A stretch of 64,000 bases of DNA from Candidatus Gottesmanbacteria bacterium (GTDB lineage Bacteria; Patescibacteriota; Microgenomatia; UBA10105; UBA927). Below the pieces are notes generated by a model. The model saw only the letters and a list, made by a program, of their open reading frames with translations, ran no database searches and was not told the DNA's origin. The translations under genes and the position numbers were made by a program. The stretch is from NCBI GenBank assembly GCA_963809665.1, contig CAWEKC010000003.1:105473-169472 (forward strand), written 5' to 3'. Positions within the stretch are counted from its first letter, which is position 1, and each line of letters begins with the position of its first letter. Below are positions 5,021-59,317 of the stretch, one piece after another.

Positions 5021-6344
5021 ATGATTCTTTCTGCGTCTGATCCTCAAATTGCCCAGTTGATAACCTCCGAGGCCAAACGCCAGGAAGAGGGTTTGGAGAT
5101 GATCCCGTCGGAGAATTATGTATCCGCCGGAATTCGCGAAACGTTGGGTTCGATCCTGACGAACAAATATTCGGAAGGGTATCCGCACAAACGGTATTAT
5201 GGCGGGAATGAGTTTATTGATGAAATAGAGCTTTTAGCCCAAAACCGGGCTAAAAAATTGTTCAATGTTCCGTATGTCAATGTCCAGCCGTATTCAGGAT
5301 CACCGGCGAACCTTGCAGTGTATCTGGCAACCTGTAAGCCCGGGGATACGATCATGGGTTTAAATCTTCTGGACGGCGGTCACCTGACGCACGGGTGGAA
5401 GGTGTCGGCAACGGCAATGTTTTACCGAAGTGTACCGTATCACGTGACCGCGGATGGACATGTGGATATTGATGAAGTGTGGCGGCTGGCCCGTGAGCAT
5501 AAACCTAAATTGATTTGGACCGGTGCCACGGCGTATGTATACCAGTATGAATTTGAAAAATTTGCGGAAATTGCCAATTCAGTAGGTGCGTATCTGGCAT
5601 CGGACGTGGCACATGTTATCGGACTTATCATTGCGGGCGTCCACAAGAGTCCGTTTCCCTGGGCGCACATTGTAACCACGACAACACATAAGACACTTCG
5701 GGGGCCGCGCGGGGGAATGATTATGGTAACAGGTGTAGGCCTCAAAAAAGATCCGGAGTTGGGGGATAAAATGGACCGTGCCGTATTTCCGGGTCTTCAG
5801 GGCGGGCCGCATGATCAACAGACCGGAGCGATAGCGGTTGCTTTGAAAGAAGCGGGGATGCCAGCATTTAAAAAATACGGCCAACAGGTTGTTAAAAATG
5901 CAAAAGTTTTGGCCGAAACGCTCAAGGCCAATGGAATGAAATTAGTCGGGGACGGGACGGAAAACCATTTAATTTTAATAGACCTCGTTCCTACGTTCGG
6001 TGCCGGCGGGGGAATATTTGCACAGGAAGCACTTTCGACTGCCGGTATTACCGTGAACAAAAATACGATTCCGAAAGACCCGGGCAGCCCGTTCTATCCG
6101 TCAGGCATTCGTATCGGGACCCCTGCCATAACAACACGGGGCATGGGGACCGGGTGAAATGAAGATCATTGGCAAGTGGATCGCCACAGCGATCAGCCAA
6201 GTCGCGGATTGCCGATTGCCGTCAACGAAAGAAGAACGGATTGAATATCTTAAGGATTTCCGTCAGTCGGTCGGGAAAAATAAAACACTGGCCGGAATTC
6301 GGAATGATATTAAAACCATGGTCGTCCGCTTCCCTTTACCGTAA
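5021..6344 (+). CDS. glyA: Serine hydroxymethyltransferase, interrupted by apparent +1 indel in a GGGG run near 6145-6148
   Basis: IPSENYVS...KYSEGYP N-terminal SHMT motifs, PLP-Lys region TTTTHKTLRGPRGG; C-terminal ~60 aa (EMKIIGKWIA...) continue in frame 0 after stop at 6157; removing one G restores RGMGPGEMKII. Confidence 0.75.
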
Positions 6345-6433
6345 GGCTGTGCTATAATTCGTTTATTACACACACTCATAGATGTCTTCTTCCCGCAAGG
6401 GCCGTGAGTGGAAGATGAAAAGAAGATACATCA

Positions 6434-6460
6434 CACCAAAGATGTATCTTTGGTGTTTTT
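6434..6460 (+). terminator. Rho-independent terminator-like hairpin (9-bp stem CACCAAAGA/TCTTTGGTG, 5-nt loop, TTTTT)
   Basis: Perfect inverted repeat followed by T5, ending 6 nt before rpsB ATG. Confidence 0.5.
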
Positions 6461-6466
6461 AATATT

Positions 6467-7342: not shown

Positions 7343-7794
7343 AAATTTCACTTGAACTTCTTAAGAAACTCCGTGCAGCTACTGGTGCCGGTGTGTCGGA
7401 TTGCAGGCAGGCGCTTGAGGATGCCGGAGGCGACTACGCAAAAGCAAAAAAACTCATTATGGAGCGGGGACTGGAAAAAGCCGCGAAAAAGGCAGGACGC
7501 CAAACCCAACAGGGATTAATTGAATCCTACGTACACGCCGGACGCGTCGGGGTACTTGTCGAACTTCGCTGTGAAACGGATTTTGTGGCGCGTACAGGTG
7601 ATTTTAAAAACTTAGCTCACGAACTTGCCCTTCAGATTGCATCCATGAATCCGAAAAACGTAAAGGAATTGCTCGTCAGCCCGTACATCCGTGATGAAGG
7701 GATTACGATTGAAGCGCTCGTCAAACAAACGGTCGCTAAAGTCGGCGAAAACATCACGGTTGCGCGCTTTACACGGATTGCGTTGGGTACATAA
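7339..7794 (+). CDS. tsf: Elongation factor Ts (short form)
   Basis: N-terminal UBA-like LLKKLRAATGAGVSDCRQALEDAGGDYAKA; 151 aa short EF-Ts; overlaps rpsB stop. Confidence 0.85.
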   Translation: MKISLELLKKLRAATGAGVSDCRQALEDAGGDYAKAKKLIMERGLEKAAKKAGRQTQQGLIESYVHAGRVGVLVELRCETDFVARTGDFKNLAHELALQIASMNPKNVKELLVSPYIRDEGITIEALVKQTVAKVGENITVARFTRIALGT

Positions 7795-29888: not shown

Positions 29889-29897
29889 TGACACACC

Positions 29898-30140
29898 ATG
29901 ATGAAACGAAGATTTGATAAGAGACGTGAACGACCGGTGGCCAAAAACTGTCCGTTCTGCGCCAATAAAACGGAACCGGATTATAAAGATACCGGTGTTT
30001 TAAATAAATATATTACCGAACGCGGAAAATTATTGAGCCGCGCCCGGACGGGTTTATGTGCGCGCCATCAGCGGGGGATTACCGCTGCCGTCAAACGTGC
30101 GAGGCTCGTTGCCCTTCTTCCGTTTATCGTCCGTGCATAA
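29898..30140 (+). CDS. rpsR: 30S ribosomal protein S18
   Basis: CPFC...[42 protein letters not shown] typical bS18. Confidence 0.85.
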
Positions 30141-30221
30141 ATTCAGCAATATCTCAGGATTTTTTTCTATACTTTCTCCATTTACTGGTATTCGATTTCC
30201 TGATAGTATGGAAGACGTCCT

Positions 30222-51293: not shown

Positions 51294-51738
51294 TCCTTGG
51301 TCAAAGATAATGGGTTATCATAAATGGAGGCAATAGATAAAAATTCTCTTCCGTAAGGGTCGATTGTATCTTCGGCTAATGCTTTTAAATCATGTACAAC
51401 TGATTTTGTCGGAAGAATGACACTGCGGGAATCTCTTCCCGCATGCTCGAATACGGGATCGGATTGAAGTGATACGAAAATACCCTCTGCAGATCTCTTT
51501 CAGGTTCATTTTGTGCCTGTCACTTCACCATTCGAAGTGTCTCGAGTGCATAATATAGTACGATCGCCAATGTATCACCGTTGTGCGCTGCTCTGATCAG
51601 TTTGGCACAGAGCGGTCCGATCCTCAGTCGTAATGACGTCTAACATGTCTATTTCTTCCGGGGTTAAAGGTTCAAAGTTTTTGGGCATTTTGGGCGATTC
51701 AACAGGGTTATTCATAGGTTGGTACTATATCATTTTTT
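51294..51738 (-). pseudogene. Gene-free stretch with short decayed ORF fragments (for example 49-aa ORF 51566-51715)
   Basis: No ORF of 60 aa or more on either strand over 445 bp in an otherwise tightly packed genome; short fragments in several frames. Confidence 0.3.
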
Positions 51739-55560: not shown

Positions 55561-56385
55561 TTGATGCCGGTACGCAGATGGTTTATTAGATCTCAGCGTC
55601 ATTTTTCGCTCACAAAACGCCAACAGTTCGTCGGAGTGACGATAATACTTACTGTCGGGTTACTATTAACACAGTTGGTTACCGGAGAAACAAGGTACCC
55701 CCTGGTATTTGTCGTATCACTCGTGGCGTGCGGGTTGTCCGCATTGGTATTCCGGCGGGAAATCCGGGGCGTGGAATGGCTTACAATCCTCACGCTGCCC
55801 ACCTTGTTTACCACAGCGGTAGCGCTTTTCTATTTCCTGCTGCCGGTGCGTTGGCTTACCCGGCTGCCGGTGGCCCTCCTATACGGCGTAGGAATGTACG
55901 CGCTTCTTTTAACCGAGAATATCTATACGATTGCCGCTGACCGTACGATTGCACTACTTCGGGCCGCGCATTCCGTCGGGTTCCTTCTGACGCTCCTCAC
56001 ATACTTCTTGTTGGTACAGACGGTATTGGCATTCCGGTTTATTGCACCAGTACAGATGGTCCTCATCGGGATTATAAGTTTTTTCCTTGTGTTGCAGTCG
56101 GTATGGTCTATGGAACTATCGGAAAAGCTGGGTAGGCGAGTGTGGCATATTAGTATCGCCACAGCTGTTTTTCTGACACAACTCGTATGGGTATTTTCAT
56201 TCCTTCCGACAAAAACGACGCTTCTTGCGCTTCTTTTTACCACCGCGTTCTATAGCACGGTGGGTGCCTCCCAGCAATATCTGGTAGAAAAGCTATATAA
56301 AAAAACCGTCATTGAATTTTTTGCCGTCGCAGCAATTGTATTTATTATTACACTCGCGGCAACTTCCTGGCGCGGATCCGCATAG
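55561..56385 (+). CDS. Hypothetical polytopic membrane protein
   Basis: About 8 predicted TM helices; no motifs. Confidence 0.4.
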   Translation: MMPVRRWFIRSQRHFSLTKRQQFVGVTIILTVGLLLTQLVTGETRYPLVFVVSLVACGLSALVFRREIRGVEWLTILTLPTLFTTAVALFYFLLPVRWLTRLPVALLYGVGMYALLLTENIYTIAADRTIALLRAAHSVGFLLTLLTYFLLVQTVLAFRFIAPVQMVLIGIISFFLVLQSVWSMELSEKLGRRVWHISIATAVFLTQLVWVFSFLPTKTTLLALLFTTAFYSTVGASQQYLVEKLYKKTVIEFFAVAAIVFIITLAATSWRGSA

Positions 56386-57398
56386 ACACGAAGTGGGGGA
56401 GGAGGGTAGTCTTGTACCTGCGGGGGTGATATAGTTTGATATACACTATCCTATAATATCCTATAGCAATGTGGATAATTCTTTTCACGGAATACTATAG
56501 TCTCATTTCACGCTCCTCAGCTACTCCGCAATAGAGCATGAGGTACCCCTCCCTTGAGTACACAATGTGTGCGTATTTTTAGAAGTTTGGATTGTCAGTA
56601 CGCTCTATTTATGCGTACTAACGGTGTAGATTATCGTTCATTTTCAGCCTCAAAAATTGACGTTTGGAGCATTATACGGCGCTAAAAAAACCCGAAAGCC
56701 ATTTTTTATTACTGCTCGTGACTAGGGAGTGCTTACGTGAGGCTAATATTACTAGTTTGTCGCATAATAACGGGCTAAACTCTCTTTATCCCTGCCCGAT
56801 ACGTATGTCCGAACAGGATAGTGATAGGCTCGAAACTAATGATTTGGAGCATATTAATGCGCTATCTGTGATTGCACCAGAGACTGCAGGGAGTAAGAGC
56901 TTTACATGGTATTGCATACTGCATTTATGGCTGCATAGTAGCGTAAACATGTAAGTATAACTGTTTCACCGTTTCCCCGGGAGAGGGGTTTTTGAGGCTA
57001 CTTACGCCCCCTGTCAAGGTATGCCATATGGACCAATTGTCCGGGTCCGTTTTGCCTGGATTTCTACCGTGGGGAATCTTGACCTATGTAGTCGCACAAT
57101 AATACTTTTGCGACGTTAACCACGGGTATTCCGGAAGGGCGTATCTTTTAGCTATTTTGTTTTCTTCCACATATTAGTTATAATTTCTATTTCCAATTCT
57201 TTGTATTGTTCCCGTATTCTCTCTTTACTATTATATTCATAATTTTCTGTTATCCGGGTTTTTCCGTTTTTCGCGTGGTTATAGCCCAAACTATCGTATA
57301 GGTGTTATGTATAGATGAACAACTGGGCATGCCCTGACTAAACAAGCCGTCCTGAGGCAATACAGAGGCTTCCAGCCGAGGCTAACTCGTAGCTAACC

Positions 57399-58370
57399 TT
57401 ATTCGGTCAAAACGCCGGCTTTTTCGAGGATTCCCCTTGCCAAAATATAATTTTTGACATGGTCTTTTTTCGGTTCAACCAATATGAACATATCGTTGCG
57501 GTTTTGAAAAAGTTTCAGCAGTTTGATCATTTCTGTTTTATCAGGAATTGCGGCGTCGGTATTCAAAACCGGATTTTCCAGCGAATCATGGATATCAACG
57601 CCGTTATACGGCGGCACGGTAAACCCAAGATGAATAAGTCGTGTGGCAGGCGCTAAGACTTTGGTTGTTTTATACAAAAACCTCCAGACGGCGCCACGAT
57701 CATCCGAAATCATATTACAGGCGGTATGGCAAAAGTCATTGGCTATGGCAAATCCGCGATGCCCAAGCTCCAATTGGACGGTTATCGGCAGCTGGTGCAG
57801 GTTGATGACACCGGTCCGGGTCCTGTTGACGCTCCAGCTTGCTGTGTCGCGCTGCGGGATTGTTTCGACGGTCAATAGCACTCCGCGGTCGCCGGCGTAT
57901 TCGTTTAGGCGTGTAATATTTTCCGTAAACGTCCGGGTGCACATATCAAGATCAGCAGGTTCTGATGCGACAGATACATTCAACGTGGCAAAATTGACGT
58001 TCACGAGCGCCCGCATGTCGGTATGGACATTCACATAGGTAAAATGATTATGTGCGGCAACGTCAATTGTGGCTTTCATAAGCTCCAAAGACGGTTTAAT
58101 GATATCCGCATCAGGATATGCGATATTTGTAAGTATTCCGTTAGGCAGCGCGCCCCAATAATGTAAACCTACATCCATAGGCCGGCGCTTCATGAAGTCA
58201 AACAGATTGGTATAGTCATCTTTTTTGGTTACATTAAACCAGACTTCAGCCATGGCGGGACGGGTGGCTGTGATATCCGCACTACTGTTACGGTCCAAAC
58301 TCACTTTGATACCGAGTTTCATAGGATCTAAGTATAACAGACTATTGACAAATAGTTCGATGTCGTACAA
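57399..58370 (-). CDS. TIM-barrel protein, xylose isomerase-like/AP-endonuclease family 2-like (tentative)
   Basis: Weak motif similarity to Nfo-type barrels (LLTVETIP, NDFCHTA, IHLGF); 323 aa. Confidence 0.3.
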   Translation of the reverse strand: MYDIELFVNSLLYLDPMKLGIKVSLDRNSSADITATRPAMAEVWFNVTKKDDYTNLFDFMKRRPMDVGLHYWGALPNGILTNIAYPDADIIKPSLELMKATIDVAAHNHFTYVNVHTDMRALVNVNFATLNVSVASEPADLDMCTRTFTENITRLNEYAGDRGVLLTVETIPQRDTASWSVNRTRTGVINLHQLPITVQLELGHRGFAIANDFCHTACNMISDDRGAVWRFLYKTTKVLAPATRLIHLGFTVPPYNGVDIHDSLENPVLNTDAAIPDKTEMIKLLKLFQNRNDMFILVEPKKDHVKNYILARGILEKAGVLTE

Positions 58371-58384
58371 TCTAGATTGTAGAC

Positions 58385-59317
58385 ATGGATTTGGACAAAT
58401 TAATAAAAGATTTTCTGGAATATCTTGAAATTGAGCGGAATGTTTCGCAGTTGACTATCCGCAACTACGCCCATTATTTGCACCGGTTTCTGGGCTTCCT
58501 GAAGACCCAAATCCCCTCCCCCGCGCCTACAACCCGCGATATTACGTCAGATTCAATCCGTGAATACCGGTTATATTTATCGCGGTTCGTTGATGAGCAC
58601 GGGATCAGTTTAAAACGCGTAACGCAGAATTACCATTTGATTGCGTTACGGTCATTCCTAAAATATTGTCTGAAGCGGGATATTTCAGTTGTCGCCCCGG
58701 AAAAAATTGATCTGCCGAAAGCGGAAAGCCGTTCCATAAAATTCCTGGAACGGGAACAGGTTGAACGGTTGTTAAATATGCCGGAAATATCCAAAGCCGA
58801 CGGTCTTCGGGATAAAGCGATTTTGGAAACGCTGTTTTCTACGGGACTTCGGGTATCGGAACTCACGAAACTCAACCGCGACCAGATCAATTTTGACCGG
58901 AAAGAATTCGGTGTCATCGGAAAAGGCCGCCGCGCCCGCGTGGTTTTTTTATCAGACAGTTCGGTCGAGTGGTTGCAGCGGTATCTCAAAGACCGGACCG
59001 ACGAGAGTATTGCGCTTTTTATCCGGTACGCCGGTAAAAAACCCGACATTGATGATAAAAACGGTGAATCATTCCGCCTGACACCGCGAAGCGTCCAGCG
59101 CTTAGTGGAAAAATATGTAAAGAAAGCGCGCCTGCCCGTAAAAATTACGCCGCACGGCTTGCGGCATAGTTTTGCCACAGACCTCTTAACCGGAGGCGCG
59201 GATCTGCGGGCTATACAGGAAATGCTCGGACATAAAAACGTGTCAACGACCCAAATTTATACCCATATTACCAATCCGCAGCTCAAGGAAATCCACGCAA
59301 GATACCACAGAAAATGA
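58385..59317 (+). CDS. xerC: Tyrosine recombinase XerC/XerD
   Basis: SAM-like N-domain; catalytic R...HGLRHSFAT...LGHKNVSTTQIYTH with active-site Tyr. Confidence 0.85.
   Translation: MDLDKLIKDFLEYLEIERNVSQLTIRNYAHYLHRFLGFLKTQIPSPAPTTRDITSDSIREYRLYLSRFVDEHGISLKRVTQNYHLIALRSFLKYCLKRDISVVAPEKIDLPKAESRSIKFLEREQVERLLNMPEISKADGLRDKAILETLFSTGLRVSELTKLNRDQINFDRKEFGVIGKGRRARVVFLSDSSVEWLQRYLKDRTDESIALFIRYAGKKPDIDDKNGESFRLTPRSVQRLVEKYVKKARLPVKITPHGLRHSFATDLLTGGADLRAIQEMLGHKNVSTTQIYTHITNPQLKEIHARYHRK

Follow-up and report, generated by a model that had tools for sequence, protein, structure and literature searches.

A repeat array and a candidate Xer core site in a conserved gene-free locus of Gottesmanbacteria-like bacteria

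The DNA analyzed here, a stretch of 64,000 nucleotides of contig CAWEKC010000003.1 from a Candidatus Gottesmanbacteria bacterium (hereafter the window), contains a gap of 1013 bp between genes at positions 56386-57398. No other gap in the window is as large, the runner-up measuring 445 bp. Two convergent genes flank it, one encoding a membrane protein of the DUF5656 family (55564-56385, + strand) and the other a TIM-barrel protein (57399-58322, - strand). The gene beyond the latter (58385-59317, + strand) was assigned to the Xer family of tyrosine recombinases with Pfam and NCBIfam, the NCBIfam scores being 249 bits for XerC, 246 bits for XerD and 224.5 bits for XerA_Arch (cut-off 220). An earlier reading of the sequence, referred to here as the original prediction, described the interval as free of genes and suspected a functional non-coding element in which repeats matter. 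No credible open reading frame (ORF) was found in 56386-57398, and a gene call made separately on the identical public contig likewise left the interval empty. The 96-aa ORF at 56664-56954, which had been called featureless, is present, lacks a Pfam match, spans units 2-4 of the repeat array described below and is not conserved as an ORF. The base composition of the gap is unremarkable. The original prediction was right that the gap stands out from the packing of genes in the rest of the window, but the spacing of "a few bases" given for the other genes was overstated, as other gaps reach 445 bp. Further intergenic gaps of 300-445 bp lie at 6158-6466, 7343-7690, 29889-30221 and 51294-51738, and packing is not uniformly tight.

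Sixty-three related loci were gathered for comparison, one from a genome, 50 from metagenomes and 12 via homologue look-ups. The gene order YebC, DUF5656, gap, TIM-barrel and Xer is common to about 40 related loci of Patescibacteria. About 30 complete loci share this order together with an ORF-poor gap of 716-1406 bp, by which the whole of 56386-57398 is delimited as a conserved non-coding locus. Identities to the window proteins are 38-60% for the TIM-barrel protein, 44-71% for DUF5656 and 42-64% for YebC in most loci, and the graded homologues of the TIM-barrel protein are labelled Candidatus Gottesmanbacteria or Patescibacteria. The locus is thus kept in about 40 relatives despite diverged flanking proteins, in agreement with the suspected functional element, and the comparison of orthologous gaps, proposed earlier as a means to separate covariation from decay, found the gap present and conserved. 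The Xer protein is far better conserved than its neighbours (63-87% identity across full-length matches in the loci); the search for Xer homologues yielded only relatives with at least 69% identity. Along the gap conservation is patchy, being strong at 56426-56700 and 57066-57125 and moderate near 57346-57370.

A short island within the gap, GTCGCACAAT AATA CTTTTGCGAC GT at 57091-57116 (the 26-mer GTCGYACAATAATACTTTTRCGACGT), is a candidate Xer core site. Among 37 distinct sequences 20 of its 26 positions are invariant, and conservation ends abruptly at both edges. Exactly one copy is present in each of 41 loci, as in the 64-kb window. Core sites of the dif and Xer type are defined by two partially dyad-symmetric arms of about 11 bp around a centre of 6-8 bp, with a total length of about 28-31 bp (PMC5357621). 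The island, an imperfect inverted repeat with arms of 10-11 bp and an A/T-rich centre of 4-6 bp, has this layout of two partially symmetric arms. Together with two flanking nucleotides (57089-57116) it reads ACGTCGCAAAA GTATTA TTGTGCGACTA on the - strand, an 11-6-11 arrangement with 8 of 11 positions matching between the arms. Single-recombinase Xer systems in which the site adjoins the recombinase gene have been described, as has the 11-6-11 layout by which dif-type sites are defined (PMC5357621). A linkage of site and gene was found here as well: the island lies 1.27 kb from xer in every island-type locus that includes xer, with the TIM-barrel gene in between. The common variants of the island are C or T at position 5 and G or A at position 20, two positions that would pair in a hairpin. 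Their combinations (CG 14, CA 11, TG 7, TA 5) are independent (Fisher p=1), which indicates that the arms evolve as separate half-sites. In the window a promoter-like TTGACC-N16-AATACT overlaps the island, its -35-like hexamer being kept in close relatives only. In some loci (L009, L012, L015, L019, L025, L027, L028, L029 and L042) the stretch from the island to the TIM-barrel stop codon holds additional copies of the half-site in inverted orientation (GCAAAAGTA / CATTTTGC), which build long inverted repeats. These copies carry the same variant as the island of their genome, and comparable ones occur in enlarged xer-TIM intergenic regions of some loci.

The part of the gap to the left of the island harbors an array of four repeat units. 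The imperfect direct repeat reported in the original prediction (56649-56683 versus 56829-56863, 24 of 35 positions identical, 180 bp apart) is beyond chance, and its two copies correspond to units 2 and 4 of this array. On the + strand of the window the unit consensus comprises an AGCCTC(aaaa) box, 11 nt and a 24-bp dyad, TTTRGMGC-N8-GCKCYAAA, and the dyads start at 56586, 56663, 56756 and 56843. The first of them is degenerate (TTTGGATT-N8-GCTCTATT, 56586-56609, + strand) and was recognized by motif comparison and a hidden Markov model (HMM) of the unit. Unit 2 (56646-56686, + strand; nhmmer E=3.5e-11) has an AGCCTC box, 11 nt and the dyad TTTGGAGC-N8-GCGCTAAA, and is followed by a conserved ACCCGAAAG at 56690-56698. 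Unit 3 (56739-56779, + strand; motif and unit HMM) has an inverted box, GAGGCT, 11 nt ahead of the dyad TTTGTCGC-N8-GGGCTAAA. Unit 4 (56826-56866, + strand; nhmmer E=7.6e-9) combines an AGGCTC box, 11 nt and the dyad TTTGGAGC-N8-GCGCTATC. The recurring GAGGCTA words noted earlier lie at 56739-56745, 56994-57000 and 57378-57384 and turned out to be the box found ahead of the dyads, AGCCTC, in inverted form, the first of them because the box of unit 3 is inverted.

The array is specific to this locus. The dyad motif was found nowhere in the 64-kb window outside the gap, and over 441,570 bases (window and loci) matches of the unit HMM were confined to the orthologous gap, except for a few weak or partial ones in or near the TIM-barrel gene of six loci. 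Full-length matches all have the same orientation. Each locus contains 2-5 significant units, and their periods fall into classes of 76-79, 84-89 and 91-96 bp, followed by about 105, 116 and 128 bp. The 224-bp spacer that separates the island from the last unit (56867-57090) is poorly conserved in sequence, as seen from low blastn coverage, but conserved in length: the median distance from array to core is 225 bp, and 17 of 38 loci have 221-228 bp. The GC-rich stem AGGGG...CCCCT described earlier exists in the spacer (56984-56988 / 57008-57012); it surrounds the inverted box at 56994-57000 and is also present in locus L057. An element resembling ACTC-N9-GAGTGCTWA lies between units 2 and 3 (56712-56735) and is similar to the right half of the CIRCE (controlling inverted repeat of chaperone expression) heat-shock operator. 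A CIRCE/HrcA operator between these units was nevertheless rejected, since the consensus was not matched at up to three mismatches (four by eye) and the pattern is found in two loci only. An array of clustered regularly interspaced short palindromic repeats (CRISPR) was dismissed too, the units being about 60-85% alike within a genome yet orthologous between genomes, with no cas gene among the scanned neighbours. Dispersed palindromes of the repetitive extragenic palindromic or bacterial interspersed mosaic element (REP/BIME) kind do not account for a motif limited to the gap in 64 kb of the window and 441 kb of related DNA, bar the few weak matches in or near the TIM-barrel gene.

The symmetry of the dyads was analyzed for signs of RNA pairing. 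The arms of 111 distinct dyads form standard pairs in 75.7% of cells, compared with 78.0% when the letters of the 3' arm are shuffled within columns, and the covariation score is lower than in 499 of 500 shuffles. For dyad positions 4/21 and 6/19 the joint tables equal the product of the marginals. The arms are thus free of a pairing constraint and represent two independently evolving half-sites. From this we infer that the dyad provides half-sites for a symmetric protein dimer on double-stranded DNA and does not form an RNA helix.

Searches for known and novel RNAs in the gap gave the same picture. At the gathering score Rfam 15 has no match in the gap, the only match in the window being a tRNA elsewhere, so that the scan suggested in the original prediction identified no known RNA family. 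At E<=10 two chance-level eukaryotic matches were the only ones in the gap, and 15 orthologous loci gave no Rfam match. ARAGORN did not detect a transfer-messenger RNA (tmRNA) in the window. The earlier proposal of a divergent tmRNA or a 6S-like RNA is not supported by these negative searches of the window and the 15 loci. A sliding-window RNAalifold analysis of nine close relatives on both strands gave a structure conservation index of 0-0.45 and consensus energies near zero except at the island palindrome. In the best-conserved block (56470-56612, 23 loci) none of 11 predicted pairs is compensatory. The idea of an unrecognized structured RNA consequently finds neither a conserved fold nor covariation on either strand.

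The third earlier candidate, the wreck of a gene or mobile element, fared no better. A six-frame comparison of the gaps lacks any protein-level signal, the window gap contains no remnant of the recombinase or the 178-aa gene found in the gap of relatives (see below), and open frames are not in excess over shuffles (median p=0.35). No small ORF 3' of the island is conserved, and the conserved ATGTGGATAAT... opens no conserved ORF. Phage, plasmid and viral collections contain nothing similar to the locus. Taken together, the gap is probably protein-binding DNA, and neither an RNA gene nor the product of decay. It would represent a cis-acting, putatively protein-bound DNA locus that is conserved across a Gottesmanbacteria-like group of uncultivated bacteria.

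The half-site ACGTCGYACAAT of the island recurs in a second palindrome, designated site B (GTCGTACAAT CTAG ATTGTAGAC, 58362-58384). It abuts the ATG of xer at 58385 and lies upstream of the divergent promoter of the TIM-barrel gene, which reads TTGTCA-N17-TGATATACT in the orientation of that gene. The right arm of site B, ATTGTRCGACGT, is conserved in all loci, while its centre and often its other arm are variable. Site B may act as an operator for autoregulation or represent a second Xer site.

Eight loci lack the island (L057/58, L007, L017, L011, L020, L021 and L051) and have a second gene of the Xer family instead, termed xer2. The xer2 protein comprises 338 aa and scores 193 bits for XerC and 186 bits for XerD in NCBIfam. 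Its module, exemplified by positions 5016-6565 of L057 and patchily distributed among relatives, also includes a 178-aa ORF without Pfam or NCBIfam match and a promoter, TTGACA-N17-TATTAT. A perfect 11-6-11 palindrome, ATCGAGTATAA TATCCC TTATACTCGAT, abuts the ATG of xer2. The xer2-type loci retain the array, the left core of the gap and a right-end block of about 80 bp, and their palindrome is located 208-245 bp from the last array unit. This distance is like that of the island, and two different Xer-type sites thus share one position relative to the array. The only link of the locus to mobile elements is this recombinase module in the same gap of other genomes. Both recombinases score far under the cut-offs for integron integrases, and periods of 77-95 bp are too short for cassettes; an integron attC array was ruled out on these grounds.

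Further conserved elements mark the two ends of the gap. A purine-rich motif of the GGGGAGAGGGAAGTGG type follows directly after the DUF5656 stop codon (56395-56410, + strand; alignment of 32 loci). Purine-rich motifs related to GGAGAAGTGG are found on the + strand at 56395-56410, about 56888-56900 and 57131-57141, and in many loci the motif recurs after the DUF5656 stop codon, after the array and after the island. At 56427-56457 (+ strand) most loci conserve a tandem of TGATATAGT and TGATATACA, extended -10-like elements with a 10-bp period, followed by CCTATAAT. The tandem itself (56427-56445) is near-identical to the -10 element of the TIM-barrel promoter, TGATATACT, and presumably has promoter function. 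Next comes a block, TGTGGATAATTCTTTTCACGG-N14-ATTTCACGC (56470-56513, + strand), that is near-invariant in 23 aligned loci. It contains a perfect 9-mer DnaA box (56470-56478, - strand), the only one in the gap; such boxes are not enriched in the window. A conserved TTGAGTACACAATGTGTGCGTA (56554-56575, + strand; alignments of 32 and 23 loci) leads into unit 1. To the right of the island, 57131-57300 (+ strand) consists of the purine motif CCGGAAGGGCG and a T-rich stretch of low complexity, with no conserved ORF and no excess of ORFs. The weak match to a signal recognition particle (SRP) RNA word, UCCGGAAGG, that had been noted in this part is present, but TCCGGAAGG (57130-57138) belongs to the recurring purine motif and not to an SRP RNA. 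Terminators 3' of the island were considered and rejected, since the T-runs come after a sequence motif and not after stems. The right end of the gap (57320-57398) is a conserved block (CAACTGGGCATGCCCTGA ... CCGTCCTGAGGCAATACAGAGGC ... GAGGCTAA) that holds an inverted unit-like element and is found in island-type and xer2-type loci alike. In the adjoining TIM-barrel protein nine H, E or D residues are invariant (H54, H100, E153, D196, H199, H231, D243, H245 and E283), and its Pfam AP_endonuc_2 score lies under the cut-off. Order and spacing of these residues match what we take to be the metal ligands of endonuclease IV, and the protein may be a divergent apurinic/apyrimidinic endonuclease.

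The best explanation of the locus, proposed here tentatively, is a Xer-type core site, the island, accompanied by an accessory array of protein-binding sites. This is suggested by the site architecture, the half-site common to island and site B, the fixed spacing and the positional replacement by a second Xer module. The island would be bound, and probably recombined, by the Xer protein encoded 1.27 kb away, either as a dif-like site for dimer resolution or as another Xer site. Each dyad of the array would bind a dimer of a further protein, and the array would keep the core site in a nucleoprotein complex of fixed geometry, comparable to the accessory sequences at the plasmid sites cer and psi or at the resolution site of Tn4430. 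As an accessory or architectural element it may serve whichever core is present, the island or the xer2 site.

Several observations weigh against this explanation of the locus. In xer2-type loci the first xer gene is present, yet the locus DNA examined contains no island, so that the presence of this gene does not always require the island. The units have no sequence in common with the island, so that a second protein must be assumed. The half-site common to island and site B would be explained equally well by the operator of a repressor. Finally, a classical dif site is expected at the replication terminus. GC skew at third codon positions (GC3 skew) shows no switch typical of an origin or terminus within ±6-10 kb of the gap in the window and three relatives. 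As its sign remains unchanged across the gap, there is no detectable terminus there, and one may lie beyond ±6-10 kb.

The orientation of the genes had suggested a terminus at the gap, as they converge on it across more than 60 kb of the window and within ±10 kb in three relatives, a suggestion contradicted by the GC3 skew. Top-strand GC3 skew in the window is 0.120 for + genes and 0.048 for - genes on the left, and 0.128 for - genes and 0.067 for + genes on the right. L052, L053 and L055, which have the opposite orientation, show negative values on either side. Bulk GC skew changes from +0.08 to +0.02 across the gap and is ambiguous. Because the genes converge while the GC3 skew keeps one sign, a block of gyrB, H+-PPase, gyrA and folD on the xer side is apparently transcribed head-on to replication in several genomes.

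Among the other explanations, a region for transcription control is plausible, though less likely. Island and site B would then be operators of one repressor, the recombinase or another factor, the TGATATAGT elements rightward promoters and the array a group of operators or architectural sites located upstream, acting on the second xer operon in relatives and on a non-coding or antisense transcript in the window. The conservation of TGATATAGT and its near-identity to the TIM-barrel -10 element TGATATACT are consistent with this, as are the overlap of site B with the divergent xer and TIM-barrel promoters and its variable centre, which is what an operator would show. The array of xer2-type loci points at TTGACA-N17-TATTAT from an upstream position, and in the window TTGACC-N16-AATACT overlaps the island. 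However, the flanking genes converge in loci of the window type, leaving nothing to regulate, and the sequence downstream contains neither a conserved ORF nor a structured RNA. The -35-like hexamer of the island is limited to close relatives, and the invariant centre of the island would be unusual for an operator. An element of chromosome organization, such as a centromere-like array of the ParB or KorB kind or a polar replication-fork barrier, is improbable. The polar, locus-specific array with its rightward units and fixed spacings, the inverted unit-like block at the far end and the gene orientation converging over more than 60 kb would fit such a function, but the GC3 skew does not switch at the gap, no partition or terminator gene was found among the scanned neighbours or in Pfam listings covering the flanks in three relatives, and the 8-bp spacer of the dyads is unlike known ParB-type sites.

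One or more non-coding RNA genes, whether a novel structured RNA, a divergent tmRNA, 6S, RNase P or SRP RNA or a protein-sponge RNA containing the repeats, appear very unlikely. The promoter-like element at the left end would suit an RNA gene, and lineage-specific GC-rich hairpins with a few compensatory changes occur between the conserved blocks, none of them general. Against this stand the negative Rfam and ARAGORN searches, the low structure conservation index (0-0.45), the lack of compensatory pairs in the conserved block and a dyad symmetry without pairing constraint, which indicates double-stranded DNA. That the gap is a neutral spacer, or what is left of a gene or mobile element in decay, is hardly conceivable given that motif order, spacing and a near-invariant 26-bp block persist across deep divergence, and that neither protein remnants nor matches in phage, plasmid and viral collections were found; the recombinase module in the same gap of relatives and the T-rich, low-complexity right part are what speaks for it. 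A chromosomal replication origin is just as hard to reconcile with the data. Origins are described as typically having small repeat arrays (PMC7111523), and the locus combines repeats with a conserved perfect DnaA box and an AT-rich stretch, with gyrB and gyrA within 10 kb. The DnaA box is, however, single and not enriched, the genes converge instead of diverging, and neither GC skew nor GC3 skew, both of which have positive values on the left, switches sign.

The proposed combination of a Xer core site and an accessory array resembles known systems in part. Like XerS/difSL, XerH/difH and archaeal XerA/dif, the island is linked to a recombinase gene and has imperfectly inverted arms of about 11 bp and a short A/T-rich centre. 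The arms of difSL and difH (PMC5357621) share with those of the island an A-run beside the centre, and the score of the window protein above the NCBIfam XerA_Arch cut-off adds to the likeness to the XerA type. The locus differs from these single-recombinase systems in the distance of 1.27 kb with an intervening gene, in the partial second site at the xer ATG, in the lack of a terminus signal nearby and in its array of unrelated dyads. As in ColE1 cer, pSC101 psi and the TnpI site of Tn4430, the candidate core would have accessory, protein-binding DNA on one side, a set distance away. The geometry of these sites is considered to impose selectivity for resolution. Here the putative accessory DNA differs in consisting of about 280-450 bp of polar units of 77-95 bp, about 225 bp from the core, and in being chromosomal and lineage-specific. 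Judged from sequence data, array and core lie a fixed 225 bp or so apart with either kind of core. Both cer and psi are listed in a figure legend of PMC5357621. The array also resembles F sopC and the RK2 KorB operators, which are direct repeats each with a dyad. Its outer half-sites, TTTAGC/GCTAAA, are presumably similar to those of the KorB operator. It differs from both in the 8-bp spacer of the dyads, in the lack of a ParA/ParB-type gene among the scanned neighbours and in being a single chromosomal locus. What the gap has in common with structured RNAs such as tmRNA, 6S RNA, RNase P RNA, SRP RNA and the large non-coding RNAs of Rfam is that it is long, conserved and devoid of genes within a compact genome, but a family match, a conserved fold and covariation are missing.

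A more far-reaching version of the Xer reading, which is speculative and improbable as it stands, would dispense with both a terminus position and guidance by FtsK. Chromosome dimers would be resolved, or another Xer reaction carried out, with the array, its dyads bound by a further protein, as a "topological filter" at a fixed distance of about 225 bp from an exchangeable core cassette, either the island or a second xer gene together with its site. In a variant of this, the polar units and the inverted copy at the end might constitute a compact replication-fork trap around the site. If correct, this would amount to a new modular architecture for chromosomal site-specific recombination.

Members of the candidate phyla radiation (CPR) or Patescibacteria have small, densely packed genomes in which cis-acting DNA has hardly been studied. 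As the locus illustrates, a gap that is long and conserved in such a genome need not be an RNA gene. Whatever its mechanism, the array defines a new putative binding motif of a lineage-wide DNA-binding protein. If the island is indeed a Xer site, it would be the first site proposed for Xer recombination in a CPR lineage, equipped with an unusual accessory array, and the xer2-type loci would provide a natural case in which the position stays fixed while one recombinase/site cassette takes the place of another.

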